From: an uncultured bacterium
GTDB taxonomy: Bacteria; Patescibacteriota; JACMRA01
DNA: 64,000 nt
Assembly (NCBI GenBank): GCA_963704645.1
Contig: OY969926.1
Span: 576,001-640,000 of the forward strand
Direction: 5' to 3'
Both the position numbers and the translations under genes were made by a program. Within the stretch, counting starts at the first letter, position 1, and each line of letters begins with the position of its first letter. A model generated the notes under the pieces. The model was not told the origin of the DNA. It ran no database searches and saw only the letters and a list, made by a program, of their open reading frames with translations. Of this stretch, positions 19,440-64,000 are shown in pieces.

Positions 19440-19520
19440 TCAATTAAAACCTGTTCACAAAATCCATACCTTTTTAATGTTTGACTAAGCTAAATTTTTG
19501 TGCTACTAAAGGTGGTTAAT

Positions 19521-20300
19521 ATGAAGTTTTTAGCGAACAAAACTAAGGTCAATAACCGTGAGTTTATGCTTATTGTTATGCTGTTTTTATCCACTTTAGT
19601 TTGTGGAAAGTCTATTAGTTTAAATTTAACAAATGTACCAAGTTTTTCTTTAGGGGAAGTAAGTGTTCAGGCCGAATCTATTTCTGAAAGTTTGGGTAGT
19701 ACGTCAGTTTCAGCAGAAGCTATTCCAGAAGTTGAAGTTGCTCCTAAGAAGGAAGTTGCTAAAGTTGAGTTGGTGAAAAGTGCTAATGTTTCATCTACAA
19801 AACCTAAAAGCGTTGCTCCAGCTGGCACTTCAAATTTATCTTTGCTTACAATTCCGTCTATAAATTTAAGCACTAATGTAGACTTTGCCTCAGTTACAAA
19901 TTTACCTGTTCTAGAAAAAAAACTTCTGTATAACCCACTTGTGGAAAGTACATTAAGCTCAGACTTTTGCGGTATTGGTTTAGCTACTTACGTTTATGGC
20001 CACTCTGAACCTGCAGTTAATGGAACAGAAAATTACCCAGCCACAAGAGTTTTCAAAAACTTAGATCAGCTAGTTGTGGGTCAGCAAATTCAAGCTTCAA
20101 ATACTAAGGGCCAAAGCTGCTCTTATAAAATAAATGAAATTTTTGTTGTAGTTACAGATAATAAAGATCAGGTAACTAATGAAGATTATGCTAAACTTTT
20201 TTACCCAGCTTTGCTTGAAGATAAAAGTATTTTAACCTTGCAAACTTGTGTTAAAGGTTCTGCTACACACCGTTTAATTATTCGAGCTATTTCTGTTTAA
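19521..20300 (+). CDS. Sortase family protein
   Basis: N-terminal anchor; IPSINL; YVYGHS; F.NL.QL..G; LTLQTC...RLII with catalytic H/C/R. Confidence 0.82.
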   Translation: MKFLANKTKVNNREFMLIVMLFLSTLVCGKSISLNLTNVPSFSLGEVSVQAESISESLGSTSVSAEAIPEVEVAPKKEVAKVELVKSANVSSTKPKSVAPAGTSNLSLLTIPSINLSTNVDFASVTNLPVLEKKLLYNPLVESTLSSDFCGIGLATYVYGHSEPAVNGTENYPATRVFKNLDQLVVGQQIQASNTKGQSCSYKINEIFVVVTDNKDQVTNEDYAKLFYPALLEDKSILTLQTCVKGSATHRLIIRAISV

Positions 20301-33041: not shown

Positions 33042-36000
33042 TCACATACCCATAACCACCACAGGTACATTGTGCTTTATGGCAAATTCCAATTCTTTTT
33101 GATGATTTGTTTTAATATCTTCATCTGTCATGCCTGGCTTTACTCGAATTAAAAGACCTGCCACTTCGTTTCTGATACTATTTAACTCATTAATTTCACC
33201 AGGAAAAGATATCTGTTCTGCTTTCTCTGGTTCATATCCATCTTTCTCCATTTTTTCTTGGTTGTTATAACTAATCAGCAGATTAGATAATCTTTCAATT
33301 ACACCTGTTAAATCTATATCATCTTTTGGGGATAAGGATTCAGGAAACTTGGAGTATTTTTGATAATAATTCAAGGCAATATTAAATTCTTCTATTTTAT
33401 CTGCAACTTCTAAAAACTTTTCTTTATCCACACCATCTGGTAAATCACCATCATGAAAATATTTTACAAGGTCTCTAGAACTCACTTCTTCTGCATTTGA
33501 TCCAAAAAACTCTGATTGGAGTATCTTAAATTTATGATATGCCATAACCTTTATTTTATTTTGTATCTGTTTTTCATTTGCAATTGTAGATAGAGTTTTT
33601 CCAGAAGCTGAAAAAGTGTCTTCTAAATCCACATTTACTGGAGTTGCTCGTAGTATCAAAGCATTTTGATTATTGCTAAATATTCTCATCCTAGAAGGAT
33701 CTGTAGAAGCATAAGTAGTGCAGAGCAATGAATCTACTTCTACTGCTCCTCTATCAAGTTTTGGTGATTTAGATGGATTATAATCTGCCCTCAATTCATT
33801 AGTAACGTGTAAATTTACACGGTAGCTACCACCTTCTCTTAAATCAATAAGTTGAACAGTTGACTGTTTTGATGTTCCATCAGGATTATTACCTTGATCT
33901 ACAGATAACTGTCTTTGGTTTGGATGCCTTAGAAGCTGGTCTACTTCGCTGATAACAGGGTAATTTAGATTTTCATAATATCGTATTATTGGTTTCAGTC
34001 CTTCAACTAGAGCTTCTCGATTTGGTTTATAGGAATCTATATACTGAAAGCTATCTTTGACTCTAAAACTATCCATTTCACCAAGTTTCATAGTCATATC
34101 TAGAAACTTTTCACTTCCAAGCCTAATTGCTAACTCATGTAGTTTCTCTTCATCCGGAAGTTTAAAATTAATGACTTCAGTTAACTTTGCAATTTCTTCT
34201 TTTAGATCTACCATATTTGGTATTTCTGCTTTCATTGAATAAGGTAAATTCAACCTATCACCGATTTGATAAGCCAACTTTACAGACTTGTATCCGTGAG
34301 AATCATCAGCTTGAGCTTCTCCCCTTTTTTGTGTTGTAGGTTTACCTAGGTCATGACTAAGGGCAGCAAGTGTCATTATAATTTTTTCCTCTTGACTGGC
34401 TTTTTGATAAATATTAGATCCTTGAACTGATTCTACAACTTTTAAGGTGTGTTGGAGTAAATTTTGATACTTATGATAATCATGCTGATATGGACCTGAT
34501 GGAGTTAGTTTTGTGTAAGGCGAGTTTTCAGGAAGATCATATTTACCAGCAGATACGGTGTTTTCAGGCGCGAAATTAAGTAACTCTGGAAGTAAAATAC
34601 TCAATTCACTGTTTGGGTTCATGAGCTGTTTTGGCAATTCCTTGGGATCTTGTAAAATATCCAAAACTTTTTTTGTCGTGTTTGGAAGGTGCTGGAAAGC
34701 CATTGTTTGCATTCCTCCCTCAATGGGGATTCCAATAGGTTTATCGTCTAATGGATTAAAAGATTCCTCTACTCTTCCGATCGATAGCTCAGAACCAAAT
34801 CCTGGAATTCTAAGTACCGCTTTGACACGTTGCCAAGTCTGATTATTCATCGTTGAAAAATGAGCATCCATTTTGTTTAACACCTCTTGAGTTGCTTCAG
34901 GGTCAGCTCTCAAAGACTCCATTATTATATTTTTGATTCCATCTTGACCCTGAAATGAGTCAAAATGTTCACTACTATCTATTTTTGAAAATATATTGTC
35001 GACATAGTTTATAAAATCATCCTTAGCCGGTATACTTATTGTATACTTGTAACCGTAATTGTTTAAGACTGTTCCATTAAAATCAACAGCGAAATCTGGT
35101 GACAATGTTTTTAATAAATCAAGTTTCTGATTATAATTCATCCAGTTTTTCTCAGCAGCTATTTTTAAAAACGCAGATTGTAACTCTACTTTTTTGTTTT
35201 TCAACAAATCTAGAATAACCTCAGGATACTCTTGAAATACTAAGTGGACAATATCATGTATTTGCGAATCCGAAAATGCATAAATAGTGTCAACTAAGGC
35301 GTTCTCAACGTCATCTTTTTTATTTTTGAAGAAGTCTGTTTTGAATTCAGATGTTAGAGTGTTGAGGAAATCCATTAGGTTGCCTGGGCTCTTTGAAATC
35401 TTGTTAATCAATGCTTTTCCAACCTCGTCACTTTTATTGTTAAAGAAATTTACACTAAATTCAGAGTCTATTTTTGAAATATTTCTTAGCGATGAAGTAA
35501 AACTATTTCCATTTTCTGAAATCAGAGAAGCTATTTCGCTCTCCACAAAAGACCTTTTTTCTGTTAAAATATTTTGAATAATATTAGGAATTAAACCATA
35601 AAGACCGTTAATCAAATCAGAATTAGATAAATTGTCAATAATTTTTTTGGTAATTACTTCCTTGTTGCTCTCAAAAAGTTGTATAACGTAATCTGGATAA
35701 AGATTGTTAATACAATCTAGCATAACATTCTTTACTTCAGTCTTCTGAAATAATTTATCAATTAATTGCTTTTCATTATTAATTAATAAATTTTGTACAA
35801 ATTTAGGATTAGCTTTATTGAAAACCGCTAAAATATTTTTTGATGTATCGATTCTTAATAATATTAACCTTTCAAGTTCCACACGATTATCATTAATTAA
35901 TTCTTTTAGAATTGTAGGATTGCTGTGCTCCATCTTTTCGAAAAAACTATCTAGTGATTTAGGATTCTTTACTAATATATCTTTAAGGTTGGTGTAAATA

Positions 36001-37235
36001 TCTTCTTTGTTATCCATTAAATCAGATCCAAAATCAGGATCGATACTATTCAATATACTGATAAAATTTTTATAATCCCTACTATCATCACTAATTAATC
36101 TTTTTAAAATATCAGATAATTGCTTTTTTCGTTCGTAAACAAATTTTGTAGCATTTTCAGGATTAGCAAATTTGATAACTCTTAACAAAGGTATAATTTT
36201 TTTTAGACCTCGTTCCCCTCGATTAATAAATCCATCTAATTTTACAAATAGATCTGAAGAAATTTGATCTATGATTAACTTTGCATTTTCAGGAAGTGTT
36301 TTTTTTAAAAACCCGATCTTATCTAAAAAAAGACCTAGATTTTTATCTAATGATTCAACTAGATAATTTTTCAACTCCCCATCCCCCTCCTTCAAAAACC
36401 TATCTACAATCTCAGGATCAATTTCCCTACACAGATCAAATATTTTTGATGGGTCTGCGCTACCTTCCTTAAACGCCTGCATCATCACATCCATCATCTC
36501 TCGATCTGCAGATTCAGGATCTAAAGCACGCATATCTTCAAACATTTTGGATAGTTGAAGCCTTGCTGCTTCAAATTCGGTTTTTAGTTGCTTGACTTTG
36601 TTTATCAGATTTCCTATTTCTGTTGTTTTGCTTTCAGATTCAATACTTTCTTTGACACCCTCATTATTGTTTTCTGCTTGTTGAGGATTTTGTCTTTTTT
36701 CCAAGTCTTTACTTAGCTTTTCTAACTCTCCAAGATATTCCTCAAAGACAAGATCTAGCTTTTTTAAGAAATCATATTCTCCTATTTGACCTACTACTTC
36801 TTGTTTTTTGTCATTGTTATTTTCAATATGATTCGAAATTATTTTAAAGTCTAAACCATTAGTTTTTGAAATTATAATTAGATCTTTATATCCTTCTATT
36901 TTTAAATTATCCCCTAAGTTTTTTTTCACTTTACCATACCCTGACTCATTAAAATCATTTGAGATATTATCCAGTACGAATATTGCGTCTCGGATATATA
37001 AATCTAGCTTAGCTAAATGGTTTTCTACTTCTTCAGAGTTTTCTGATTTTAGAGATTCATCTGCGAATTCAATTTCTTCTGCATTTACAATCATTGCCAA
37101 TACCGAATCTTGATCTAATAATTCTTTTGTAGAATGTTTTTTTTCAGCTATATTCAAATTCTTTCCAATCTCTATTTTGGGTATTTGCAATTTACTAGAC
37201 TGGCTTAATAGTTGACTTTTAAAATCAGCGGTCAT
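33042..37235 (-). CDS. Giant protein: coiled coil, alpha-solenoid repeats and HD domain
   Basis: About 12 helical repeats (xxPEF/PDF...NKxEL); Q.DYH.Y..LQHTLKV...LAALSHDLGKP...H..S, a CCA-enzyme-like HD motif. Confidence 0.7.
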   Translation of the reverse strand: MTADFKSQLLSQSSKLQIPKIEIGKNLNIAEKKHSTKELLDQDSVLAMIVNAEEIEFADESLKSENSEEVENHLAKLDLYIRDAIFVLDNISNDFNESGYGKVKKNLGDNLKIEGYKDLIIISKTNGLDFKIISNHIENNNDKKQEVVGQIGEYDFLKKLDLVFEEYLGELEKLSKDLEKRQNPQQAENNNEGVKESIESESKTTEIGNLINKVKQLKTEFEAARLQLSKMFEDMRALDPESADREMMDVMMQAFKEGSADPSKIFDLCREIDPEIVDRFLKEGDGELKNYLVESLDKNLGLFLDKIGFLKKTLPENAKLIIDQISSDLFVKLDGFINRGERGLKKIIPLLRVIKFANPENATKFVYERKKQLSDILKRLISDDSRDYKNFISILNSIDPDFGSDLMDNKEDIYTNLKDILVKNPKSLDSFFEKMEHSNPTILKELINDNRVELERLILLRIDTSKNILAVFNKANPKFVQNLLINNEKQLIDKLFQKTEVKNVMLDCINNLYPDYVIQLFESNKEVITKKIIDNLSNSDLINGLYGLIPNIIQNILTEKRSFVESEIASLISENGNSFTSSLRNISKIDSEFSVNFFNNKSDEVGKALINKISKSPGNLMDFLNTLTSEFKTDFFKNKKDDVENALVDTIYAFSDSQIHDIVHLVFQEYPEVILDLLKNKKVELQSAFLKIAAEKNWMNYNQKLDLLKTLSPDFAVDFNGTVLNNYGYKYTISIPAKDDFINYVDNIFSKIDSSEHFDSFQGQDGIKNIIMESLRADPEATQEVLNKMDAHFSTMNNQTWQRVKAVLRIPGFGSELSIGRVEESFNPLDDKPIGIPIEGGMQTMAFQHLPNTTKKVLDILQDPKELPKQLMNPNSELSILLPELLNFAPENTVSAGKYDLPENSPYTKLTPSGPYQHDYHKYQNLLQHTLKVVESVQGSNIYQKASQEEKIIMTLAALSHDLGKPTTQKRGEAQADDSHGYKSVKLAYQIGDRLNLPYSMKAEIPNMVDLKEEIAKLTEVINFKLPDEEKLHELAIRLGSEKFLDMTMKLGEMDSFRVKDSFQYIDSYKPNREALVEGLKPIIRYYENLNYPVISEVDQLLRHPNQRQLSVDQGNNPDGTSKQSTVQLIDLREGGSYRVNLHVTNELRADYNPSKSPKLDRGAVEVDSLLCTTYASTDPSRMRIFSNNQNALILRATPVNVDLEDTFSASGKTLSTIANEKQIQNKIKVMAYHKFKILQSEFFGSNAEEVSSRDLVKYFHDGDLPDGVDKEKFLEVADKIEEFNIALNYYQKYSKFPESLSPKDDIDLTGVIERLSNLLISYNNQEKMEKDGYEPEKAEQISFPGEINELNSIRNEVAGLLIRVKPGMTDEDIKTNHQKELEFAIKHNVPVVVMGM

Positions 37236-51899: not shown

Positions 51900-52682
51900 A
51901 TGTTTAAAAATAAATTAGTTCTTGTCGCAACAATAATAGCAATAGTTGCATCTGTATTCTTAATTATTGGTGTTGGGGCAGGGGTTTGGTGGCTGTGGGA
52001 TAAAAACTTACCAGTTTCAGTTTTATCGGTTCAAGGGGAATCTTCTAAAAAAGTAAAATACGATAAAGTTACAATTAATTTAACAATAAGCTTAATTGGT
52101 AAAGATGTATCAGTTTTAAATTCAGAAATAGACACCAAAACTAGTAAAATTATTGATTATTTAAAATCTCAAAATATCTCTGAAGATCAAATTCAAACCA
52201 ATAAATCTTCTTATCCTGATTACGAAATGGGCTATATTTATTCGGCTCCAGATGTAAGTCCTAAAGAAAGACAAACCAGAGTAGAAAATAATTTTATAGT
52301 TACTTTTACAGACTTTGGTTCAGATAACACTAAGCCAAATAAAGTAATTGCAGAGGTAACAAAGCTTGGTGTTAACAGATTTGGCAGTTTTAATTACGAT
52401 TTCAACGACAATAAAAAAGTGTGCAGCGATTTAGAAAACATGGCAATTGAAGATGCTTACAACAAAGCTCAAGATAGAGTAAAAGCTTTAGGCGGTGGCA
52501 GAATAGTTAAGAAAACTACAAACTTACTTTCTGGTTGTGGAGGTGTAAACAACTACCCAATGATGTATGCAACCAAAGCAGATGTAGCAGCATCTGGGCC
52601 TAGCCAAGAAATTCCTCCGTCAGTTTTAGGTGGCGAACAGGAAATTACAAGTACAATTGAACTTACTGTAGAGTATAAATAA
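51900..52682 (+). CDS. SIMPL (DUF541) domain protein
   Basis: TM; LSVQGE....V; L...I....IQT; AIEDA..KA; GEQEIT..I...V. Confidence 0.82.
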   Translation: MFKNKLVLVATIIAIVASVFLIIGVGAGVWWLWDKNLPVSVLSVQGESSKKVKYDKVTINLTISLIGKDVSVLNSEIDTKTSKIIDYLKSQNISEDQIQTNKSSYPDYEMGYIYSAPDVSPKERQTRVENNFIVTFTDFGSDNTKPNKVIAEVTKLGVNRFGSFNYDFNDNKKVCSDLENMAIEDAYNKAQDRVKALGGGRIVKKTTNLLSGCGGVNNYPMMYATKADVAASGPSQEIPPSVLGGEQEITSTIELTVEYK

Positions 52683-52728
52683 TATTTACGAATAAATTAT
52701 TAGACGCCCCAACTTGGGGATTTAACTT

Positions 52729-52757
52729 TTGCCCAAACCTAAAAAATAAAATACAAT
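52729..52757 (+). promoter_or_regulatory. Promoter of modular surface protein A
   Basis: TTGCCC-AAACCTAAAAAATAAAA-TACAAT; near-copy at 57747. Confidence 0.65.
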
Positions 52758-52779
52758 AGAATAAAACCAAAACAAAAAT

Positions 52780-54738
52780 ATGAATCAAAAATCATCTTCA
52801 AGTAGTGACAGTAATAGTAACAATTCTAAATTTGGAAATAAATTTAGTTTAAATAAATTTTTAAAATCTAAAAAAGGACAATATTCTTTATTCTCTTTAT
52901 TAACCCTTTCTGTATTATTAATATCTGGATTATTTACTTTCTCTTTATTACAAAATACTGACACAGCATTAGCTGCTTTAAATTGTCCTGCTGGTTCTTC
53001 TTCAAATGGAAGTCAATGTATCTCTAATACTCCTAGTAGCTACACTTGTCCTGCTGGATATCCTTTTAATAACAATAATGGAACATGTGGAAGGGATGTT
53101 CTTCTTAAAAAATACCTAGTTTTAAAAACATATGGAAATGTACTTCCTTCTGCTAACGATCCTTGTGTAGTAGCAGTTGATCCACGTTTAATTTATATGA
53201 GTGAAACACCAGAAAGTGCATTTGATTCAGCTAGAAATTGTGCAACCACAATTAGCTTTGATGTTACGTCTGCAGCTTTTTTACAAGTTAATTCTTATAA
53301 TTATATTTTGCCGGGTGCAAATGAACCTTGTGCAATGGTATTAGATAGTAGGGTGACATACTTAACTAATGGAAATGCGCCAGCAAGTGGTGGATGTGCT
53401 TCAACAGTATTAGATTTATCTCAAAATTATATAGTTTTCAAATCCTACAACATAATAAATCAGGGAGCAAATGAACCCTGCGCTGCAGTACCTACACCCT
53501 CTATAATGTATGTAAGTTCTGCGCCTGAAAATTTTATGAACGGTTGTGGCGGTGGACAAGGTGGCAATTCAGTGTCTGTTAATTTGAAAGAATTTACCCG
53601 AATTAATGATGGAACAGCTACCCCAGTCTACGGAACAGCAGTAACCCCAACTTCCTACACTGTTGAAGATGTTAACGTTTCAACAGGTACTTGCACTTCC
53701 AATTTAGGAACTAACACAGTAGTAATAGGTCAAACTATGAATTGTACTTTCCCTCTTACGGGTAGCCCAGCTGGAGTACCATACATCCTACCACCTGAAG
53801 GTTTGTATGCAGGATTATGGGATACCCCGACTAATTCTAATAGCTTCTTAGGTAATAGTGGGCTATGTACTATCTCGGCTAATAGCATGACTTGCAACAA
53901 TGTACCTACTACTGGCGGTACCCCAGGCCCAGCTGAATTAGTTATTCACAGGCCAGGAGTTGCTTGGTATCCTAATAAGGGAAGTATTGAGTTAGTTGCC
54001 TCTTCCTCCCCCCTAACAACAGCAGACATCCCTTCCCTTACAGTAACATGTGGAGTAGGAGGAACTCCTGGAACAGTAAGAGTAAACACTACAACAACTT
54101 GTACCTTCACTCTTCCTACAAACAAAACATTACCAAATAACTTCAAACTAGGAATAGGAAATGCAACCCCTGCAGGAACTTGTACTGTAGGAGCAAACAA
54201 TCTTGTAACTTGTATTAATGTACCAACAGGAACACTTCTTGGAACACAACCTATCAACGGACAAATTGGAACTGAAACAATAACACCTACAGGAGAAACA
54301 GTAAATGTAATAGATTCACTATGTTCCACAACTAACCCATGTGCCCTATTCGAAACAGCACTAACCTACAGTCCAACCCAAGCCCTAGCCAAAAGATATG
54401 GAGCTTCTGGTTCTACAAACTCAGATAACCTAATACTAACTCTAAAAGATACAAGATTAGAACAATCTGGATTTACTACAACATGTTCCATAAAATATAA
54501 ATTCAGAACAGATACAAGCTACAGAATATTAACAACAAACTCTACATACAATAATACTACAGGATGTACAGGAAACCTTCTTAAAGCAAATCAACTATTA
54601 TTCAATGTAGACTTTGAAATAACTGCAATAACAACAAATACAACTACAAACACTACAAAGAACTATCTAATCTATTCCAACTACGATTTCAAAGCTGGTT
54701 CTATTGGAGTTACTTCTATTGGTGGAAGTGGGTTGTAA
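52780..54738 (+). CDS. Modular secreted Cys/Thr-rich surface protein A
   Basis: KSKKG-hydrophobic-TALA signal; threefold 2-Cys repeat; two C-x-F-x-L-P beta domains; C-terminus shared with protein B. Confidence 0.8.
   Translation: MNQKSSSSSDSNSNNSKFGNKFSLNKFLKSKKGQYSLFSLLTLSVLLISGLFTFSLLQNTDTALAALNCPAGSSSNGSQCISNTPSSYTCPAGYPFNNNNGTCGRDVLLKKYLVLKTYGNVLPSANDPCVVAVDPRLIYMSETPESAFDSARNCATTISFDVTSAAFLQVNSYNYILPGANEPCAMVLDSRVTYLTNGNAPASGGCASTVLDLSQNYIVFKSYNIINQGANEPCAAVPTPSIMYVSSAPENFMNGCGGGQGGNSVSVNLKEFTRINDGTATPVYGTAVTPTSYTVEDVNVSTGTCTSNLGTNTVVIGQTMNCTFPLTGSPAGVPYILPPEGLYAGLWDTPTNSNSFLGNSGLCTISANSMTCNNVPTTGGTPGPAELVIHRPGVAWYPNKGSIELVASSSPLTTADIPSLTVTCGVGGTPGTVRVNTTTTCTFTLPTNKTLPNNFKLGIGNATPAGTCTVGANNLVTCINVPTGTLLGTQPINGQIGTETITPTGETVNVIDSLCSTTNPCALFETALTYSPTQALAKRYGASGSTNSDNLILTLKDTRLEQSGFTTTCSIKYKFRTDTSYRILTTNSTYNNTTGCTGNLLKANQLLFNVDFEITAITTNTTTNTTKNYLIYSNYDFKAGSIGVTSIGGSGL
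54335..54738 (+). repeat. 404-bp direct repeat (constant C-terminal domain), copy 1
   Basis: Matches 61599-62002; only three differences noticed, all in the last ~55 bp. Confidence 0.95.
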
Positions 54739-54785
54739 TGTCAGGGTTGACAAATTTTCGCAAGCATGGCATTTAGTTGCTAAGT

Positions 54786-55907
54786 ATGTCGGCAGATTTT
54801 TACCAAATTTTAGGCGTTTCTAAAACCGCCACTCAAGATGAAATTAAAAAAGCTTACCGCAAATTAGCCCATCAATATCATCCAGATAAAACCCAAGGCG
54901 ACAAAGCTAGTGAGGCTAAGTTTAAAGAAGTAAATAATGCCTATGAAGTTTTGGGTGACCAAAAAAAGCGTGATAATTATGACAGATTCGGTTCTAATTA
55001 TGATAAGGTTAATAATGCCGGGCAAGGTTTTGGGTATGGTGGAGTAAGTTTTGATTTTGGGGAAATGGGCGGGCAAGCTCCTTTTGGAGACTTAAATGAT
55101 GTGTTTGAAACTTTCTTTGGTTCTGGCTTTGGTTCTTCTACCAACAGACGTAATAAAACCAAACCAACCAGCAGATCTAAGGGTGTAGATATTGAGATGG
55201 GTATTAGTTTAACTTTAGAAGAAATTGCTATGGGAAGCAAAAAAACTTTTGGCTTGAAGCATAACATTAGTTGTGTTAATTGCTCTGGCAAGGGTTTTGA
55301 ACCGGGCTCTAAAGTTTCTACTTGTCCTACTTGTAAAGGTAATGGTAGAGTTTATCAACGGGTTGAAACCATTTTTGGAATTATCCAGCAAGAAACAAAC
55401 TGCCCAACTTGTGAAGGAGGGGGTAAAGTTTTTGAGAACGCTTGTAAGTTTTGCTCTGGGAAAGGTTATAACCAAGAAACAGAACAGCTTGAAGTTGAAA
55501 TACCATTCGGTGTAGACAACGGTGATAGAATAAGAATACAAGGCAAAGGTGAAGCTGGATATAGAGGCTCTGAACCGGGAGATTTGTATTTGCAAGTTCA
55601 AGTTCAACAACACAAGCTTCTACAAAGAGACAAATTAGATATTAATTCTACAATTGAAGTTGGCTATTTTGATGTATTATTAGGTTCTAAAATTGATGTT
55701 TATACTGTTTGGGGTGAGGTTGAAGTACAAATTCCTGCTTTAACAAATCCAGATGGAAAATTGCGTTTGAAAGGCCAAGGAATGCCCAAGTTAAATAATT
55801 CAGGTCAGAAAGGTGATCATTTCCTAAAGTTAAAAATTAAAATGCCAAGTAAGTTAACAACAGAGCAAAGCGAAGTGCTTAGAAAAATAAGAGAAGAATC
55901 TGAGTAG
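54786..55907 (+). CDS. dnaJ: Chaperone DnaJ
   Basis: HPD J-domain, G/F region, four CxxCxGxG repeats. Confidence 0.97.
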   Translation: MSADFYQILGVSKTATQDEIKKAYRKLAHQYHPDKTQGDKASEAKFKEVNNAYEVLGDQKKRDNYDRFGSNYDKVNNAGQGFGYGGVSFDFGEMGGQAPFGDLNDVFETFFGSGFGSSTNRRNKTKPTSRSKGVDIEMGISLTLEEIAMGSKKTFGLKHNISCVNCSGKGFEPGSKVSTCPTCKGNGRVYQRVETIFGIIQQETNCPTCEGGGKVFENACKFCSGKGYNQETEQLEVEIPFGVDNGDRIRIQGKGEAGYRGSEPGDLYLQVQVQQHKLLQRDKLDINSTIEVGYFDVLLGSKIDVYTVWGEVEVQIPALTNPDGKLRLKGQGMPKLNNSGQKGDHFLKLKIKMPSKLTTEQSEVLRKIREESE

Positions 55908-55981
55908 GTTTGTATTATTTTTCGCCGATCTTTAAGTTTGAAATTATTGCCTGAAACTTAATTTTAGATTAACATTATAAA

Positions 55982-56428
55982 GTGAACAAATTAACATTAA
56001 TATTTAAACAAAGTTGGTTCTGGCAAAGTTTAATTTTAAGCTGCGTTATACTTTTAAACGTTTTACTTTCTTTCGCGGTTAGAAACTTAGGTTTATATTA
56101 TATTCCAAACCAACAACCTTTTGGTTTTAGTTTAGGTATTTTTTCTTCTGCTATAATATTATTATTTGTAAGCTGGGGTGTTTTTGCTTTAAAGTTGTTC
56201 GAAAAATCGCCAGTATTTAGTTTGTTAATACTAGGTGGGGCATGGAGCAACTTTATTGAAAGAATAATTTTTGGTTCGGCAACAGATTATATTATATTTT
56301 TCTTCAGTTACATTAATTTAGCTGATATTCAAATTTGGTTAGGCTTAATTTTATTAAATATACAAATGTGGTTCGGCAAGCAAGTGCAAGTTGTTAAATC
56401 CACTGAAAAAGATAAAATACCGGAATAA
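55982..56428 (+). CDS. lspA: Lipoprotein signal peptidase II
   Basis: N...FG, GGAWSNFIER, DY, NLAD. Confidence 0.75.
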   Translation: MNKLTLIFKQSWFWQSLILSCVILLNVLLSFAVRNLGLYYIPNQQPFGFSLGIFSSAIILLFVSWGVFALKLFEKSPVFSLLILGGAWSNFIERIIFGSATDYIIFFFSYINLADIQIWLGLILLNIQMWFGKQVQVVKSTEKDKIPE

Positions 56429-56481
56429 CTAATTTCTAATTGCTAGCTTATAAAAAGTAGGGTATAATTAGTGTGTAATAT

Positions 56482-57720
56482 ATGCAGAGTGGTCAAAAGA
56501 TTAGTTCAGAATGGCAAAATGTATTAGATAATTATTTAAATTTAGATGAAAGCTGGAAAAAGGAAATCTTTTTAAAAAGCATGAGTTCTAAACAAAAAGA
56601 TTATTTATTACAAATTGTGCAAGATGCTATAGATAGTAAAATGGCAGAAAATCTTGTTCCTACAAAAAATATTTATAGCCACACCAGCCCTAGTTTCCAA
56701 CAAAATGTTTCTAATATAAATTTACATCCCAACGGTTCTAATAGTTTACAGTATTTAGCATCAAATAAAGATGAACATTTACTAAGTCACAAAGATTATA
56801 AAACTAGTAAAAGAAAGTGGTGGGCTACACTGTTACCTGTTTTTTTAATTGCTACGGTAATTAGTGGCCTTTCGGGTTTAGTTTTTTTTGCTTGGATAGG
56901 CGGTGGAATTCCAAAATTATCTTTCCTAAACAATATACCTGGAAATAAGGCTAAGGCGGATGAAATTACTTATGTGCAGTGGATAGAACAATTCGATACA
57001 ATAAAAGATACACGCGAAACACTAGATTTTGATGCAGACGGAATAAGTAATTTTGAAGAATTCCAGTTAGGGCTGAACCCTGTAAAGTTTGATGAAAACA
57101 ACAATTCTACAGTTGATGGACTAGACTATATTAATAAAGATATCTCTTTACTAAAAAATGTTGGTGAGCAGTCAAAAATGTGGCAACTGGTTGAAAGTCA
57201 AAGTATTTTTCTAAGACTTCAAAAAGCAACTTTATTAAAATTGGGGTTGCAAAATTCTGGAGAGAGTTTGTTGAAATTAACTAAAATTGTTATTCCAAAA
57301 CTGGATAATTTAGAAGTTTTAGCTTTACCTGAAAATACAGATTTACAAGATTCCTCTAGTACTTTAAAAAAGCAGGCAGCCTTAGTTCATTACTTAGGTA
57401 CAAATTGGGCAGGTGAAAATTTAAGTGTTTGGTTTAGTAATCAAGGTAAAATTGAACAAATGATGCCAGGTGATAAAATGGAAGCATACTTGCAAGACGA
57501 CCAAGAAAATAGCTGGTATCAAATTTATCAACTGCAAGCTGCAAATTCTTTTAGTGCAGACAGCCAAGATATATTTAAAAATGAAAGTAATATTCCTAAT
57601 TTAAAAATTGTTTTATGCCAGCCAGAAAATGGTTGTAACAAAGCTTTAGTTCTAACTTTTGAAATTAAAGAAACTAAACAAATTACCTTTGATAACCAAA
57701 TTAGCTCGCTAGAGTTTTAA
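56482..57720 (+). CDS. Membrane protein with Ca-binding (thrombospondin-3-like) repeat and degenerate sortase-like domain
   Basis: TM; DFDADGISNFEE..LGLNP..FDENNN..VDG; IVIPKL...VHY.GT..G...LKIVLC. Confidence 0.5.
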   Translation: MQSGQKISSEWQNVLDNYLNLDESWKKEIFLKSMSSKQKDYLLQIVQDAIDSKMAENLVPTKNIYSHTSPSFQQNVSNINLHPNGSNSLQYLASNKDEHLLSHKDYKTSKRKWWATLLPVFLIATVISGLSGLVFFAWIGGGIPKLSFLNNIPGNKAKADEITYVQWIEQFDTIKDTRETLDFDADGISNFEEFQLGLNPVKFDENNNSTVDGLDYINKDISLLKNVGEQSKMWQLVESQSIFLRLQKATLLKLGLQNSGESLLKLTKIVIPKLDNLEVLALPENTDLQDSSSTLKKQAALVHYLGTNWAGENLSVWFSNQGKIEQMMPGDKMEAYLQDDQENSWYQIYQLQAANSFSADSQDIFKNESNIPNLKIVLCQPENGCNKALVLTFEIKETKQITFDNQISSLEF

Positions 57721-57746
57721 AAATTTCAATAAAATCAAACAGGTTT

Positions 57747-57775
57747 TTGCCCAAACCAAAAAAACAAAATACACT
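57747..57775 (+). promoter_or_regulatory. Promoter of modular surface protein B
   Basis: TTGCCC-AAACCAAAAAAACAAAA-TACACT. Confidence 0.6.
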
Positions 57776-57861
57776 ACAACACATAAGCAGAAATTCCATT
57801 CTGTCTGTAGTTTAAAGTATATTAAAAATTAATGGTGTAACCATTAAAAACAAAACAAATT

Positions 57862-57883
57862 GTAGAGGCGAGCCTGTCTCGCC
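57862..57883 (+). repeat. GTAG-type REP palindrome in the leader
   Basis: GTAG-A-GGCGAG-cctgt-CTCGCC. Confidence 0.6.
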
Positions 57884-57937
57884 ATTAAACGTTAAAATCA
57901 GGAATAACAAATTCCAAAAAAACAAAAACTAAAAATT

Positions 57938-60900
57938 ATGTCCAAACCAGGTCAAATTAATAATTCTAAAATAAAAAAAGAAGAATCTAAATTAGATAAC
58001 TCTAAATCAAATCTATCTAATACAGATAACCATCAAATAGTTAAAAATACTAAACCTACTATAGCACAGTTCCTCCAATCTAAAAAAGGAAAATATTCTT
58101 TAATCTCTCTTCTAGTTCTTTCTGTACTTCTTATCTCAGGATTATTTACATATAACCTATTAAAACAAGATTCTGATACAGCCAAAGCAGCAAATACAAC
58201 AGCAACAGCTTTTAACCCTTCAGACTGTGCAACTTATGCATCTAATGGAGGAACAAATACAGCAGGAGTATGTTTTGTAAAAATGTATGAAAAGAACGGA
58301 CAATTATATAGAAGTTTAGATATTGCTCCAGGAGAATTAGTTAATGTAAGAAACTATTATAATAATACAACCACAGCATCTGTAACAGCAGCTAACATTA
58401 CAGATAGTATGCCAGCCAACTTCACAAGAGTAGGAGCAGTAACAAATAGTTATGTAGATGCAACTCCTGTAACCTTAAACAATAATGTATTTACAGGACA
58501 GAACCTTTCAGTTGCTCCAGGTGCTGGTTACTTTGGTTATGCTGCAGACAATACTCTTACTTCTTCTAATTTGGAGTTGGGGAAGAAGAGGTATCTAGAC
58601 TTCATTAGATGTACTTTGCTTACAGGAAGTGGTGGTAACACAATTAGCCCATTACCTTTTACAAATACAAACAACAACGGCGTTGCAACTACTCAAGCTG
58701 AGTGTGATTCAACTATTGGTTGGAGTTCCATACCTTCCCTTAATAGCGGTAGTTACAAAGGAATAGATACATTAGGGAAAAGATATGCCGACTTTTTACG
58801 ATGCCAGGCTACATATGCAGGAAGTACTGGAAATATTGTTCAATTACTTAGTTACACCAATACAGATAATAACGGTGTTGCAACTACTCAGGCTCAATGC
58901 GATGGTAGTATTGGTTGGAGTTCAGTACCAGCAAGTAACTCAGGTAGTCTTAAAGGCTTTGATTCCTTAGGTAAAAGATATTTTGATTATCACAGATGTT
59001 TAAGTTCTGGAGGTGGAATAATTGTTAGCCCTGTTGGCTATACAAATACAAACAACAACGGTGTTGCCACAACCCAAGCCGAGTGTGACTCAACTATTGG
59101 TTGGAATTCTACCCCAGCAAACAACTCTGGAAGTCTTAAAGGCTTTGATACCCTAGACACCACCAGAGGCTACGGCTACATCTCATACTCCATGCAAGCT
59201 CCAACAACAGGACTTACCAACGGACAACAGGTTGGCACAACGGGGACTCTAACAGCATCAGGAGCTAAAACATCAGGAACAGCATCTTCTTTAACAATAA
59301 CCAACGTATCCACTCCAAACATAACCTACACAAAACTATACTCTGTAGACGGAGGAAGTACATGGAGCCCTACAGTATCTGCTAATCCAGGACAAAGTGT
59401 TCTAGTAAGATTATGGAATGAAAACACAGGAGGATTATCTTCAACAAGTGCTAACATTAAAGACAGCCTTCCAAATACATTTACCTATGTAGCAGGATCT
59501 GCTAAAAACTGTTTAAATCCAAGTACTACAACAATTACTTCTCCAGATAACACAGAACTAGTTTGTGATAGTGGAACTTCTACTCAGAAAGATTCTTTAT
59601 TCTCTACTCTTACAAATGCCAGTGGAGTTTCTCCAAGTGCAGGACTTTATGATGCTGCTGGAACTACTGTTGCTTCTGGTGGAACTGCTTTTAATGCCAT
59701 ATCAGGAACTAAGGATATTGGGAAGATGAGGTATGTTCAACAACAAGTTTGTAATTATGTAAGAACCACCGAGCAAGCAGTAGTGTTTGATAGAATTCTT
59801 ATTCAAGCGAATAATATTCCAAACTTTACGGTAACCCCAGTAACTACTCTTTGCCCACTTACTAACACCAACCCAAGCTATCAATTAGGCACAATTCAAG
59901 GAGATTCAGCAGTAAATACTGTAGATACATTGGGTGATAGATATTCTCACCAGCAAGTTTGTAACTATATAAGACAATCTGATCAGGCCGTAGTGTTTGA
60001 TAGATATTTAGTTCAAGCAAATAACAATCCTATTCTTTCAATTACTCCAGTAACTACACTTTGCCCACTTACTAACACCAACCCAAGTTACCAATTAGGT
60101 AGTGTGCCTGGAGATTCATCTATCAATACAATTGACACGCTAGGTGACAGATATGTTCACCAACAAGTTTGTAATTATGTAAGAACTAGTGACCAAGCTG
60201 TACTGTTTGATAGAATACTTATTGAAGCAAATAATAATCCAAACTTCACAGTAACCCCAGTAACTACTCTTTGCCCATTTACCAATACCAACCCAAGTTA
60301 TCAATTAGTAGACTCAGCCATCAATACAGTTGATACCCTAGACGCCACCCGCTCCAAATCATACATCCAATACGAAATGATTATCCCAGCAGGAACAGCA
60401 GGAGGAAACTATGGAACACAATCTACAATAGCTTCTACAGCAACAACCCCAGAATTTACATCAGTAAACAGTGGAACTAATGGAAGTGGAATTACAGTTG
60501 CAGGAGATCCAGCCTTTAGTGTAAAGAAACTTCTTGCTTTACCAACTTCAGGAACAGGAGCAAGTGCAGTATGTCCAACATCTACTTCAAGCTACTCAAC
60601 AACATTATCTAATACACCAGCAGGTTCTACAGTATGTGTAAGACTAGCTTACCAGAATAAAACTAGTGGAGCAGTAAGTAATGCTAGAATAAGGGATGAA
60701 ATTAATAATTCCCCAAGTGGCTTTACCCGAGTAGCAGGATCAACTCTTAACTGTTTAACTCCAGCTACAGGAAGTGAAATATGTAATACCTCTGCAGGTA
60801 TGGGAGGAGCTATTGATGAAAATTCTGTTTGGGTTACTAGAGTAGCTGATCCAGCTCCGGGACAAGGTGGAGGTAGTACCGATAATCAACTAGATATTAC

Positions 60901-62002
60901 ACCACATGCAGGCTTTTACGGAATCTCTTCTAATTCAATTACAGGTGTTATGGAAATGGGTAAAAAAAGATATGCAGACAGAATCAGCTGTGTAGCTTTA
61001 TCTGGAAGTGCACAAGAAACATATATCCAAAAATTCTCCAACTTAAATTCAACTAGCCCAGATGGTGATTGTGGAGGGCCAAGTAATGTTGCTTCAATAA
61101 CTCAAATTGATACTTTTGCACAAAGGTACGCCCATAGAATTAGTTGTACTGCTTACAGCGGTGATGCTCAAGAAGTGTACATCCAAAGATACGTTAATAC
61201 TACAACAATAAACAATGGTGGCGATTGTACTCCAACCGGTGTGGCATCTATAATTGCCATTGATACACTTGGTTTAAGATATGCTCACAGAGTAAGCTGT
61301 AATGCTTTAGCTGGTAAACCTCAAGAATTGTACATTCAATTGTTCTCTAACATTCTAACAACAAACAATGGTGGCGATTGTTCAACTGCTGGCGTAGCAT
61401 CTATTAATGTATTTGACCTCCTAGACCCAGCCAACGGAACAGGCTACATCCAATACAAGATGTTAACCCCAACCAATCCAACAAGCACTAGTATTACATT
61501 ACCAAACGTAACCCTAGCAGGAGACAACCAAACAACATCAACTTCACCTGCTACAATTAACTTTACAAATATTCCAGAAGTAGGATGCTCAACCACAGAC
61601 CCATGTGCCCTATTCGAAACAGCACTAACCTACAGTCCAACCCAAGCCCTAGCCAAAAGATATGGAGCTTCTGGTTCTACAAACTCAGATAACCTAATAC
61701 TAACTCTAAAAGATACAAGATTAGAACAATCTGGATTTACTACAACATGTTCCATAAAATATAAATTCAGAACAGATACAAGCTACAGAATATTAACAAC
61801 AAACTCTACATACAATAATACTACAGGATGTACAGGAAACCTTCTTAAAGCAAATCAACTATTATTCAATGTAGACTTTGAAATAACTGCAATAACAACA
61901 AATACAACTACAAACACTACAAAGAACTATCTAATCTATTCCAACTATGATTTCAAAGCTGGTTCTATTGGAGTTACGTCTATTGGTGGAAGTGGGTTGT
62001 AG
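57938..62002 (+). CDS. Modular secreted surface protein B: three DUF11-like scaffolds, each with a threefold 2-Cys repeat insert
   Basis: Same signal region as protein A; three PG..V.VR..N...A.I.D..P..F..V domains; GKxRY-(repeat)x3-LD...YI.Y.M; shared C-terminus. Confidence 0.82.
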   Translation: MSKPGQINNSKIKKEESKLDNSKSNLSNTDNHQIVKNTKPTIAQFLQSKKGKYSLISLLVLSVLLISGLFTYNLLKQDSDTAKAANTTATAFNPSDCATYASNGGTNTAGVCFVKMYEKNGQLYRSLDIAPGELVNVRNYYNNTTTASVTAANITDSMPANFTRVGAVTNSYVDATPVTLNNNVFTGQNLSVAPGAGYFGYAADNTLTSSNLELGKKRYLDFIRCTLLTGSGGNTISPLPFTNTNNNGVATTQAECDSTIGWSSIPSLNSGSYKGIDTLGKRYADFLRCQATYAGSTGNIVQLLSYTNTDNNGVATTQAQCDGSIGWSSVPASNSGSLKGFDSLGKRYFDYHRCLSSGGGIIVSPVGYTNTNNNGVATTQAECDSTIGWNSTPANNSGSLKGFDTLDTTRGYGYISYSMQAPTTGLTNGQQVGTTGTLTASGAKTSGTASSLTITNVSTPNITYTKLYSVDGGSTWSPTVSANPGQSVLVRLWNENTGGLSSTSANIKDSLPNTFTYVAGSAKNCLNPSTTTITSPDNTELVCDSGTSTQKDSLFSTLTNASGVSPSAGLYDAAGTTVASGGTAFNAISGTKDIGKMRYVQQQVCNYVRTTEQAVVFDRILIQANNIPNFTVTPVTTLCPLTNTNPSYQLGTIQGDSAVNTVDTLGDRYSHQQVCNYIRQSDQAVVFDRYLVQANNNPILSITPVTTLCPLTNTNPSYQLGSVPGDSSINTIDTLGDRYVHQQVCNYVRTSDQAVLFDRILIEANNNPNFTVTPVTTLCPFTNTNPSYQLVDSAINTVDTLDATRSKSYIQYEMIIPAGTAGGNYGTQSTIASTATTPEFTSVNSGTNGSGITVAGDPAFSVKKLLALPTSGTGASAVCPTSTSSYSTTLSNTPAGSTVCVRLAYQNKTSGAVSNARIRDEINNSPSGFTRVAGSTLNCLTPATGSEICNTSAGMGGAIDENSVWVTRVADPAPGQGGGSTDNQLDITPHAGFYGISSNSITGVMEMGKKRYADRISCVALSGSAQETYIQKFSNLNSTSPDGDCGGPSNVASITQIDTFAQRYAHRISCTAYSGDAQEVYIQRYVNTTTINNGGDCTPTGVASIIAIDTLGLRYAHRVSCNALAGKPQELYIQLFSNILTTNNGGDCSTAGVASINVFDLLDPANGTGYIQYKMLTPTNPTSTSITLPNVTLAGDNQTTSTSPATINFTNIPEVGCSTTDPCALFETALTYSPTQALAKRYGASGSTNSDNLILTLKDTRLEQSGFTTTCSIKYKFRTDTSYRILTTNSTYNNTTGCTGNLLKANQLLFNVDFEITAITTNTTTNTTKNYLIYSNYDFKAGSIGVTSIGGSGL
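61599..62002 (+). repeat. 404-bp direct repeat, copy 2
   Basis: Offset 7264 bp from copy 1. Confidence 0.95.
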
Positions 62003-62031
62003 GGGTTAATCATTGAAATTCACAACACTCT

Positions 62032-62056
62032 GTAGGGGAGATATTTACTATCTCCC
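62032..62056 (+). repeat. GTAG-type REP palindrome
   Basis: GTAG-GGGAGATA-tttac-TATCTCCC. Confidence 0.65.
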
Positions 62057-62132
62057 GGGGTAAACGAAGGGAAATGGAGAAGAAACTACGAACCGTAACT
62101 TCCTCGTTTCCTCAAACTCCACGCGCACCCAA

Positions 62133-62174
62133 ACTACCCCCAAGCCTTTGGCTTGACCCCTTACCAGGGGTACT
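62133..62174 (+). repeat. 42-nt palindromic element, intergenic (copy d)
   Basis: ACTACCCC-CAAGCCTTTGGCTTG-ACCCCT-TACC-AGGGGTACT. Confidence 0.85.
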
Positions 62175-62375
62175 TTTTATTTTGCGGATTTTTTTTCCAA
62201 TTGCATTGCTTGTTTATAAATATACTGCCCCCATTTTTGGTAGTTTGTTGCCTTATTCTTAAGATTATTTATTGGAATTACAAATACTGAATGATATTTT
62301 ATGGGAAATAAATGCCGTTTTCCTAGAAGCAAATAATTTTGACATATAACTAATGAAAAGCTATCCTGTAGGCAC

Positions 62376-63872
62376 ATGCTTTCTGTTACCTTTTGTGGAG
62401 CTACACGCACAGTTACGGGTTCTCAATATTTTTTGGAATACGCAGCTCCAGATGGTAGTAAATTTAATTTTTGTCTAGATTCGGGAATGTTCCAAGTGGG
62501 GCAAAAAGTGAATTTGTACAAGCTTAATTCTTATTTGGTTTTCGACCCGAAAAAACTTGATTGTATTGTTTTAACCCATGCTCATTTAGACCACTGCGGA
62601 CGTATTCCATATTTAATTAAAATGGGTTTTGGAGGAAAAATTTATTCTACATTAGCCACAAAACAAATTGCAGAAGTGGTAATGCGAGATTCAGCAAGGC
62701 ACAATTCAGAAGGATATTTGGCCCCAGATTTTGGTGGATTGGTTGATAGCCCTAATAACTCATCTGATGGAAATTTGAACAGTGTAAGTGATTCCAAAAA
62801 CAGCTCTAGAAATATATTGCCAGCATTGTACACTGAAGTAGAAGTAGACTCTGCTATGGGTAGATTTAAAACCTATGAATATTTAGAAAAGTTTAGAATT
62901 CACCCAAATTTAGAAGTAGAGTTTCACGATGCTGGTCATATTTTAGGTTCGGCTTTTGCAATTTTTACAGAAATTAGTTCCGGTAAACAAGTAGTTTTTT
63001 CTGGTGATTTAGGTAACGAACATAAGCCAATTATTAAAGACCCGGAAATGCCAGATACACCACCTGGGCTAACACACATTTTCACAGAAACCACCTATGG
63101 TAATAGGGTTCACCCTAAAGTAGATACCAAGCAGCATTTACGTGAAATTGCTAAGAAAACTTTACGTAGAGGAGGAAAATTAATTATTCCATCTTTTTCT
63201 GTGGAGCGTGCACAAGAGGTAATTTATTATTTGGTTGAATTAATGCGGGAAGGCAAAATAGACCAAGTTCCAATTTTCCTAGATTCGCCAATGGCTTCAA
63301 AAGTGTTGGAAATTTGTTTAAACCACCCTGAACTTTACGACAAAGATATTAAACAAAAAATTGCCGACGGAGCTAATCCGCTTCAGTATAAAAACTTGAA
63401 AATTTTGGAAAGTGTGCATCAGTCTAAAACTGTAAATGAAAACCATAAACCATGTATTTTAATTGCAGGAAGTGGAATGTTGAACGGTGGAAGAATTTTG
63501 AAACATTTGCAATTTCATTTGAATAACCCTTTAAATACGCTTTTGTTTGTTGGCTACCAAGCCGAAGGAACACTTGGAAGAAAAATTTTAGAAGGTGCTG
63601 AAGAGGTGGAAATTGAAGAAAAAATGGTGGAAGTTTTGGCGCAACTAGAAACTATGAACGAATTTTCGGCTCATGCAGATAGCAGAATTTTGAAAAACTG
63701 GGTATTAAGTTTAATGCGAGATTTACCAGATGATAAAGTTCCAACTGTATTTTTAATGCATGGTGAAAAAGAAGCTTCTTTAACTTTTGGGAAGGAACTG
63801 GAAAATAGTTTCATGTCTAAAATTAAAACCTACTGGCCAAGATTTTCAGAACGAGTAGTTATGTGGGAGTAG
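62376..63872 (+). CDS. MBL-fold beta-CASP ribonuclease
   Basis: GAT.TVTGS, THAHLDHCGR, DAGHILGS, FSGDLG, ETTYG, AGSGMLNGGR, GYQAEGTLG, FSAHAD, MHGE. Confidence 0.94.
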   Translation: MLSVTFCGATRTVTGSQYFLEYAAPDGSKFNFCLDSGMFQVGQKVNLYKLNSYLVFDPKKLDCIVLTHAHLDHCGRIPYLIKMGFGGKIYSTLATKQIAEVVMRDSARHNSEGYLAPDFGGLVDSPNNSSDGNLNSVSDSKNSSRNILPALYTEVEVDSAMGRFKTYEYLEKFRIHPNLEVEFHDAGHILGSAFAIFTEISSGKQVVFSGDLGNEHKPIIKDPEMPDTPPGLTHIFTETTYGNRVHPKVDTKQHLREIAKKTLRRGGKLIIPSFSVERAQEVIYYLVELMREGKIDQVPIFLDSPMASKVLEICLNHPELYDKDIKQKIADGANPLQYKNLKILESVHQSKTVNENHKPCILIAGSGMLNGGRILKHLQFHLNNPLNTLLFVGYQAEGTLGRKILEGAEEVEIEEKMVEVLAQLETMNEFSAHADSRILKNWVLSLMRDLPDDKVPTVFLMHGEKEASLTFGKELENSFMSKIKTYWPRFSERVVMWE

Positions 63873-63918
63873 GGGGAAGATAAATATTTTTCCGTAGGGG
63901 CTATGTTCACCATCGCCT
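63869..63918 (+). repeat. Tandem GTAG-type REP-like palindromes
   Basis: GTAG-GGGGAAGATA-AA-TATTTTTCC then GTAG-GGGCTATG-ttcac-CATCGCCT. Confidence 0.5.
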
Positions 63919-64000
63919 GTTTTATTTTGTGCTAGAATTTAATTTGTGAAGCATGTTCTATCAATTTATTTTAGCCAGCAGGAATAAATTGAACTTGGTT

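Follow-up and report, generated by a model that had tools for sequence, protein, structure and literature searches.

The 64,000-nucleotide stretch analysed in our study, referred to here as the window, comprises bases 576001-640000 of contig OY969926.1 from an uncultured member of the Patescibacteriota, and it was found to carry two genes, geneA and geneB, which end in nearly the same 405 nucleotides (nt) and differ in their middles. Both belong to a family dispersed over the genome, and their constant 3' block encodes the last ~135-140 residues of each protein, here called the C-terminal domain (CTD). In the explanation that we consider probable, these genes encode Sec-exported, disulfide-rich, modular surface proteins with a surface-anchoring CTD, and the gene ends are homogenised by gene conversion. 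Each gene would then be a self-contained cassette of a promoter-like box, a signal peptide, a variable middle and an FN3/Ig-like CTD of ~135 aa. The middle would be built of Ig/DUF11-like sandwiches and three-fold one-disulfide repeats and may bind external ligands, for example host-cell surface structures, and the CTD would retain or sort the proteins at the cell surface via a sortase-independent route. The binding modules would be reshuffled over evolutionary time as the genes recombine at their constant ends and at internal modules that they share. The abutting cluster of repetitive extragenic palindromes (REPs) would give the stop codon, would probably stabilise or terminate the mRNA and may aid conversion by providing longer homology.

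A constant 3' block in a dispersed gene family

The constant blocks of geneA and geneB differ at three of 405 positions, two of them synonymous and the third lying in the stop codon (TAA vs TAG), and in the pairwise alignment their identity drops within a few bases on both sides of the block. The sequence-only reading of this DNA had described such a block next to unrelated disulfide-rich middles and had added a common promoter and signal region, and its description is borne out in all these respects. The middles of the two genes do not align with each other, and their cysteines, 22 in geneA and 30 in geneB (both even), are spaced as regular pairs. The 35-nt promoter-like boxes are 89% identical and the signal regions are 81% identical over 73 nt.

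The genome-wide search for the 405-nt block has given 11 copies at 98-100% identity over 377-405 aligned nt and one more at 70%. The 12 open reading frames (ORFs) with the block have lengths of 552-1948 aa and together take up ~13,700 codons, or ~3% of the genome; the family therefore counts 12 paralogues, or 13 with a variant, M, which ends in LPRTG. An assembly artefact or a single pair of static copies, either of which had been left open earlier, does not fit these results: 12 copies were found, the 11 near-identical ones have unique flanks and 29 polymorphic sites among them, and the genome is a single contig. The neighbours of the members are housekeeping genes, namely rpoC, a RecG-like helicase gene, ATP synthase beta, ftsZ, radA, CTP synthase and dnaJ. 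No recombinase or secretion gene lies directly beside family members, and the nearest integrase-type ORF is placed ~2 kb beyond one member, past radA. No description of the CTD or of the gene family was found in the literature searched.

Sequence, distribution and fold of the C-terminal domain

No Pfam or NCBIfam model matches the CTD. A HMMER scan of 1.84 billion representatives has yielded 14 proteins with the CTD at E<=1e-30; a fifteenth match (1.4e-4) was rejected as a repetitive, unrelated-looking sequence. In a database of 5.77 billion clusters, 31 CTD proteins were found among 1511 candidates, and 12 of the 31 come from this genome, those from elsewhere being unnamed or labelled 'hypothetical protein'. 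The minimal homologue, P0014, consists of a signal peptide and the CTD alone. A narrow CTD profile was positive in 4 of 41 related genomes, and a profile including distant copies in 10 of the 27 genomes of the order, with 2-12 matches each and the most in this genome. On the evidence of these sequence searches, the CTD is an undescribed domain family restricted to one Patescibacteria order and expanded and homogenised in this genome.

The alignment of 13 domains has highlighted four conserved cysteines and a fully invariant end, NYDFKAGSIGVTSIGGSGL; geneA, geneB and the other CTD members end in ...SIGGSGL. After its Lys the tail has 15 uncharged residues, with neither a hydrophobic run of helix length nor a basic cluster. 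In all seven copies from the sister species, 7-16 of the last 57 nt differ from those of geneA and none of the 19 encoded residues does, and thus the tail is under strong protein-level constraint.

The three dimensional structure of the CTD alone has been predicted with AlphaFold (AF2) from the 13-row alignment as an eight-strand beta sandwich, with a mean predicted local distance difference test score (pLDDT) of 77.9 and a predicted template modelling score of 0.71. The last 12 residues of the model have pLDDT <50, and the invariant 19-residue tail is probably flexible. An earlier single-sequence AF2 model was poor (pLDDT 49.5) and is superseded by the alignment-based one. Foldseek found nothing in PDB at E<=0.001 (best E 6.8e-3), and in the VIA search 11 chains reached Z>=8, the best Z of 8.6 (root-mean-square deviation 2.6 over 93 residues) being within the range which the tool rates as common.

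Position of the domain, its passengers and the LPRTG paralogue

The position of the CTD was checked in 11 of the 17 distant matches outside the three best genomes, and in 11/11 examined it ends 0-11 residues before the stop. In another genus, four different proteins end in the CTD with a related tail (...Y.[LM][KR].GA[IV]GLV.IS...), and they comprise one GH9 glycoside hydrolase (E=3.8e-35), a geneA-like protein and two without Pfam match. A 703-aa CTD protein of that genus had been taken by eye for a glycoside hydrolase, for which Pfam gave no support.

The thirteenth relative, M (genome 964733-967195, minus strand, 820 aa), was found by tblastn of the family against its own genome. It carries the promoter-like box, signal peptide and first module of geneA; a segment of 333 nt is 89% identical to geneA and one of 196 nt is 97% identical to member G. 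At the point after the stalk-module ending ...TGETVNV where geneA enters the CTD, M instead runs into ...LPRTG, then a hydrophobic helix and finally a basic tail. A regular-expression search over all ORFs has shown three sortase signals in the genome, all of them LPRTG and none on a CTD protein. The second LPRTG protein, of 443 aa and ending at 496583, has the same stalk modules and a family-like promoter box at 495195. No LPXTG motif, C-terminal membrane helix or basic tail was found in CTD members, and the features of the tripartite sorting signals (PEP-CTERM, GlyGly-CTERM and MYXO-CTERM) are absent from the tail, with no NCBIfam match. Since the CTD is always C-terminal, closes unrelated passengers including a GH9 enzyme and is replaced by LPRTG in M, it is probably a surface anchoring or sorting domain.

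The same end could instead be a removed export or processing tag, comparable to the CTD of the type IX secretion system (T9SS) or to a C-terminal propeptide, in which ...S-G-L-COOH is read by a PDZ protease or sorting enzyme and the mature protein is released or covalently attached. We regard this as unlikely. The invariant extreme C-terminus under strong purifying selection would suit it, as would two PDZ-bearing peptidases, one of family S41 encoded 1.5 kb upstream of member I and one of family M50 near member K, and the divergent sortase-like protein P0036 between geneA and geneB. However, these links consist of adjacency and of motif resemblance drawn from general knowledge of PDZ domains, P0036 has no Pfam sortase match and its distribution is unlike that of the CTD. 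Moreover, the NCBIfam scan of geneA and geneB recognised no known sorting domain, T9SS included, and nothing points to an outer membrane.

Slightly more doubtful is a polymerisation module, whose tail would be inserted as donor strand into the sandwich of the next subunit, so that family members would co-assemble as fibres or as a surface layer in the manner of strand-exchange pili. An invariant, low-confidence tail following a beta sandwich is what such a module could look like, one CTD on many passengers would permit mixed assemblies, and P0014 is just a signal peptide and the CTD. On the other hand, the GH9 passenger and the LPRTG swap fit tethering better than fibre building, and no usher-, chaperone- or pilus-type genes adjoin the members.

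Gene architecture and the search for programmed variation

The signal region of geneA runs from a long basic n-region over the hydrophobic core YSLFSLLTLSVLLISGLFTF to a predicted cleavage site ALA|A. In geneB, the cysteine pairs fall at residues 225/256, 289/321 and 354/383 in the first three-fold repeat, at 605/639, 675/709 and 745/779 in the second (Tandem Repeats Finder: period 210, 2.7 copies) and at 1018/1045, 1070/1097 and 1121/1148 in the third, whose translation shows the recurring motifs GKKRYADRISC/AQRYAHRISC/GLRYAHRVSC. The middle of geneB matches the DUF11 repeat TIGR01451 weakly (20 bits against a cut-off of 24, E=5e-4), and its leads in the ESM Atlas are DUF11 clusters at 0.85-0.87; geneA has zero Pfam families above cut-off. 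In the phmmer search against PDB sequences no matches were obtained for geneB and two chance-level actinidin matches for geneA. The signal peptide, the disulfide-rich Ig/DUF11-like and three-fold repeats and the episymbiotic lifestyle of the phylum suggest an adhesin or host-recognition function of the middles.

All seven strict genome-wide matches to the box are upstream of family members. The eight boxes that were read have a 17-nt, A-rich spacer with an A6-A7 run in every case, and the hexamers of the geneA box appear in the sigma-70 scan list at 52729-52757 with spacer 17. The generic sigma-70 scan was no better than shuffles (29 found vs 32.6 expected), and it is by their conservation that the family boxes are called promoter-like. 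The geneB box lies ~160 nt 5' of the ATG; an 851-nt stretch that takes in the 5' leader is 85% identical between geneB and member A, and no Rfam match was found for this leader.

All members are complete ORFs and have promoter-like boxes of their own, except member J (genome 971957-977687, minus strand), a 1691-aa open frame with Gly-rich, near-perfect long repeats which is split from its signal-peptide ORF. The latter precedes it and encodes 179 aa, which include a signal peptide and an fn3 domain; its first 195 nt are 93% identical to those of member L. The two frames overlap by 14 nt and the frame change is away from any homopolymer; J and its 179-aa ORF may represent a pseudogene, a gene split in two or an error in the sequence.

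Programmed antigenic or phase variation, by promoter slippage or cassette recombination as in Mycoplasma Vlp, Campylobacter fetus sap or Neisseria pilE/pilS, would account for constant ends with variable middles, for the A7 tract in the 17-nt promoter spacer, for the gene-conversion footprints described below and for the frameshift in J. It is nevertheless quite improbable, as the eight spacers read show no length variation and no sign of slippage, each member has its own box and full ORF, the J frameshift is away from homopolymers and no promoterless or silent donor cassettes were found by tblastn of the family against the genome. No invertase, reverse transcriptase or recombinase was found beside the genes. 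Among the 52 window ORFs scanned with Pfam none is a reverse transcriptase or recombinase, in agreement with the sequence-only reading, and reverse transcriptase PF00078, by which a diversity-generating retroelement would be recognised, was not found in the genome. The earlier idea of a combinatorial adhesin system with an anchoring or export CTD gains indirect support in its second half, for the reasons of position, passengers and LPRTG swap given above. An active combinatorial system gains none from full genes with their own boxes, and no silent cassettes, reverse transcriptase or adjacent recombinase were found. The pattern resembles shuffling over evolutionary time and falls short of a demonstrated switching system.

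Concerted evolution of the gene ends

The last 423 nt are 92-100% identical among the 11 copies, 65-97% within the sister genome and 65-75% between the genomes. In a maximum-likelihood CTD tree of 18 rows, from which one 92-aa fragment had been dropped, the 11 copies form a clade supported at 100/100 with a stem of 0.32 and internal branches <=0.05, despite four N-terminal architectures; a diverged paralogue just upstream of the window (genome 573178-574902) pairs with its sister-genome counterpart at 86/91. Over its N-terminal 246 aa, geneB shares 65% identity with a type-B protein from the sister lineage, the CTDs of geneA and geneB are 99% identical, and a geneA-like protein is present in another genus. 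The type-A and type-B architectures are, judging from these comparisons, older than the species split.

Among the 11 copies, 29 of the 405 sites vary (13 synonymous, 16 not), 18 of them in the first 42 nt. The four-gamete test is violated, several pairs of sites showing all four combinations, for example sites 197 and 216. In members A, B, H, I and K the 330-400 nt of non-coding 3' flank equal the coding block in conservation, and in E, F, G, J and L they do so in part. This identity of the non-coding flank points to homogenisation at the DNA level, which protein selection cannot explain. BLAST and k-mer maps have revealed 3'-anchored shared tracts of ~390 to 3450 nt, three homogenised classes of 5' ends and internal segments common to members in differing combinations. 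Member A is a mosaic which has the 5' end of geneB but is identical at its 3' end to the neighbouring member B. The locus beside yceG holds a 1450-aa type-B gene here and a 625-aa type-A gene in the sister species, so that the middles are not invariant at the level of the locus, as the sequence-only reading had allowed they might be. In the sister genome, four family copies run into contig ends, which is expected for unresolved repeats.

Members F and L (754169-760012 and 1125298-1131144; 1947 and 1948 aa) are 370 kb apart and 99.9% identical over their 3' 3450 nt, with only ~70% identity in the first third; the shared 3' tract would stem from a duplication or from a long conversion event of very recent date.

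Duplication, conversion or recombination had been proposed behind the constant end. Gene conversion or recombination that keeps the CTD and its flank homogeneous between loci is strongly supported, because the 11 copies form one clade across gene types, the flank is homogenised and the four-gamete test fails. Recent duplication with purifying selection alone and replaced middles, which the F/L pair would resemble, is very improbable and already largely refuted by the comparisons, since the two architectures predate the species split and reach another genus while their CTDs are 96-100% identical here, since it accounts neither for the flank nor for the four-gamete failure, and since swapping middles between kept ends is recombination itself.

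REP clusters at the stop codon

The REP cluster after geneB contains several hairpins (fold z = -2.04), and the hairpins have the form GGGGAGAT-loop-ATCTCCC. Ten of the 11 near-identical members use as stop codon a TAG within the GTAGGG head of the REP; the exception is geneA, which has a TAA stop and no REPs, and its homology to the other members stops there. The genome has 21 GTAGGGGAGAT sites, 17 of them just downstream of family members, and 138 GTAGGGG sites. The sister genome has GC-rich flanks of heterogeneous sequence, and its CTDs show less homogenisation. An ORF resembling a REP-associated tyrosine transposase (RAYT) was found at L079:2695-3405 (minus strand) with the NHIHG (HUH) motif; its sole PDB match is weak (TnpA-REP 4ER8, E=0.35), and PF01797 (RAYT) was not found in the genome at E<=0.001. 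GTAG REP termini are described as often supplying the stop codon (PMC3733652).

A more far-reaching version of the anchoring proposal can be put forward as a speculation with a small chance of being right. The CTD would be the address tag of an undescribed sortase-independent display pathway of one order, with a function parallel to that of the T9SS CTD or LPXTG, and in this genome RAYT nicking at the stop-overlapping REP would start conversion into the CTD with the constant ends as homology arms, so that a selfish repeat would have been recruited to reshuffle the host-attachment modules of an episymbiont.

Several observations weigh against the explanation preferred here, that of surface-anchored proteins with converted ends. 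The structural neighbours of the CTD are generic FN3/Ig sandwiches, none of them informative, and the LPRTG swap is a positional equivalence, not an equivalence of function. No partner, receptor polymer, processing enzyme or co-occurring gene has been identified for the CTD. P0036 was considered as a CTD-specific sortase and rejected, as it also shows no BLAST similarity to the sortase of the window and its distant homologues have no Cys, in addition to the missing Pfam match and the differing distribution. Ligand binding by the middles is suggested by their architecture. The correlation of REPs with homogenisation has n=2, and any role of REPs in conversion would be read from these two cases; of the two genomes of the genus, only this one shows strong homogenisation. 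Finally, no joints between loci were present in the contigs of a sediment sequencing run, which are short and of low depth and are thus weak on ongoing recombination.

Comparison with known systems

In case of Helicobacter pylori, the Hop/BabA-BabB proteins are encoded by dispersed paralogues with near-identical 5' and 3' ends, divergent middles and conversion chimeras; their constant C-terminal part anchors in the envelope, and phase-variable repeats are known. The present family is like Hop/Bab in its dispersed loci, constant ends, divergent middles and conversion between loci. However, the constant end of Hop/Bab is an outer-membrane beta-barrel in a diderm, whereas here it is a ~135-aa sandwich in a genome in which Omp85 was undetected, and the phase-variable repeats were not found in this family. 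Campylobacter fetus sap and Clostridioides difficile Cwp (CWB2) proteins also join a constant wall- or surface-binding module to different functional or antigenic parts on many paralogues. The sap genes keep the DNA of their anchor-encoding region identical; their anchor is N-terminal, and a single promoter is moved by inversion. The candidate anchor here is a single C-terminal domain, unlike the N-terminal anchor of sap or the triple CWB2 repeats, and each gene has its own promoter-like box in place of the single inverted promoter.

In comparison to sortase substrates, the LPXTG signal stands at the same place as the CTD, after a stalk ending in ...TGE(T/K)VN in paralogue M and the 443-aa protein, whereas the CTD proteins themselves are devoid of LPXTG, membrane helix and basic tail. 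The T9SS CTD is also a beta-sandwich at the extreme C-terminus which tags enzymes and adhesins for surface display, but there is no sequence relation, and NCBIfam on geneA and geneB (E<=0.1) gives no T9SS model. T9SS moreover needs an outer membrane, and Omp85 was not found here, though the T9SS genes themselves were not searched. By these analogies, the way of working of the family resembles that of known constant-anchor paralogue families, and what is new is an undescribed CTD without the defining features of LPXTG and T9SS signals.

The surface display and host recognition of ultrasmall episymbiotic Patescibacteria are little understood. The family described here offers a compact candidate anchoring domain with an invariant 19-residue tail, together with a natural control in paralogue M, where the same passenger has an LPRTG signal instead of the CTD. 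The CTD could mark the surface proteome in this order, and the locus can serve as a clear case for concerted evolution and REP-coupled recombination in reduced genomes. Palindromes that abut ORFs and give the TAG stop are shared with the GTAG REPs and clusters like bacterial interspersed mosaic elements of PMC3733652, and the candidate RAYT-like ORF of this genome may be a further parallel; the difference is that here one subtype is nearly private to one family (17/21) and homogenised with the last 400 nt of coding sequence. The attachment factors described for Patescibacteria in the literature searched are type IV pili, and a survey records no PrgB-type adhesins in the phylum (PMC12102498).

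Features of the locus and the host genome

The positions of the features of geneA and geneB are collected in Table 1.

Table 1. Features of geneA, geneB and the adjoining REP cluster, in positions of the window.
Feature	Positions	Strand	Remarks
Promoter-like box of geneA	52727..52761	+	TTGCCC-17 nt-TACAAT, A-rich spacer; direct repeat D8
geneA (family member D, type-A architecture)	52780..54738	+	ORF, 652 aa
Signal region of geneA	52780..52974	+	Read from translation
Constant 3' block of geneA	54334..54738	+	Pairwise alignment; CTD = residues 513-652
Promoter-like box of geneB	57745..57779	+	TTGCCC-17 nt-TACACT
5' leader of geneB	57780..57937	+	~160 nt, with GC-rich hairpin; common to member A
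geneB (family member E, type-B architecture)	57938..62002	+	ORF, 1354 aa
Three-fold repeat 1 of geneB	58661..59167	+	Repeat family D3; period ~62-65 aa, one Cys pair per unit
Three-fold repeat 2 of geneB	59729..60358	+	Repeat family D1; 3 x 210 nt, one Cys pair per unit
Three-fold repeat 3 of geneB	60950..61420	+	Bounds approximate; Cys pairs and repeated motifs, one Cys pair per unit
Constant 3' block of geneB (CTD)	61598..62002	+	TAG stop within GTAGGGG REP head
REP-hairpin cluster	62000..62175	+	GTAGGGGAGATatttactATCTCCC and others; ends in terminator-like hairpin 62156-62171 and T-run

The stop codon of geneA is separated from the start of dnaJ by 39 nt (window 54739-54777) without a REP cluster or terminator-like hairpin, and therefore geneA may be co-transcribed with dnaJ and lspA. 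P0036 (window 56482-57720, plus strand, 412 aa) lies between geneA and geneB, 3' of lspA. It has a cytoplasmic N-domain, one membrane helix, an Asp-rich TSP3-like repeat and a C-terminal domain with 'IVLCQP'; its nearest ESM Atlas clusters are Patescibacteria sortase-family proteins (0.90/0.89/0.86), and its orthologue in the sister species has 62% identity. Rfam gave zero matches at E<=1 on window 52000-64000.

The genome consists of the one contig of 1,272,640 bp, with an estimated completeness of 87%. Omp85 was not detected in it, whereas control genomes respond to the same search; ribosomal protein uL30 was also not detected, and two sortases are detectable by Pfam. Ribosomal protein uL30 is not known from the Patescibacteria phylum. 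Because of the missing Omp85 and uL30 and the two sortases, the predicted host fits a small monoderm organism of Patescibacteria type. The sediment sequencing run mentioned above contains 20% of the sampled genome words, no RNA run being listed as a source of them, and in its short, low-depth contigs the summed word depth of the constant block is ~10 against 0-4 elsewhere.

Two further large ORFs of the window are surface-protein-like and were not picked up by the CTD searches, one of 1077 aa with a PA14 match (window 9079-12312, plus strand) and one of 1397 aa with no Pfam match (window 33042-37235, minus strand). One of the genome's two Pfam-detectable sortases is encoded at window 19500-20300 on the plus strand, 32 kb from the family genes.

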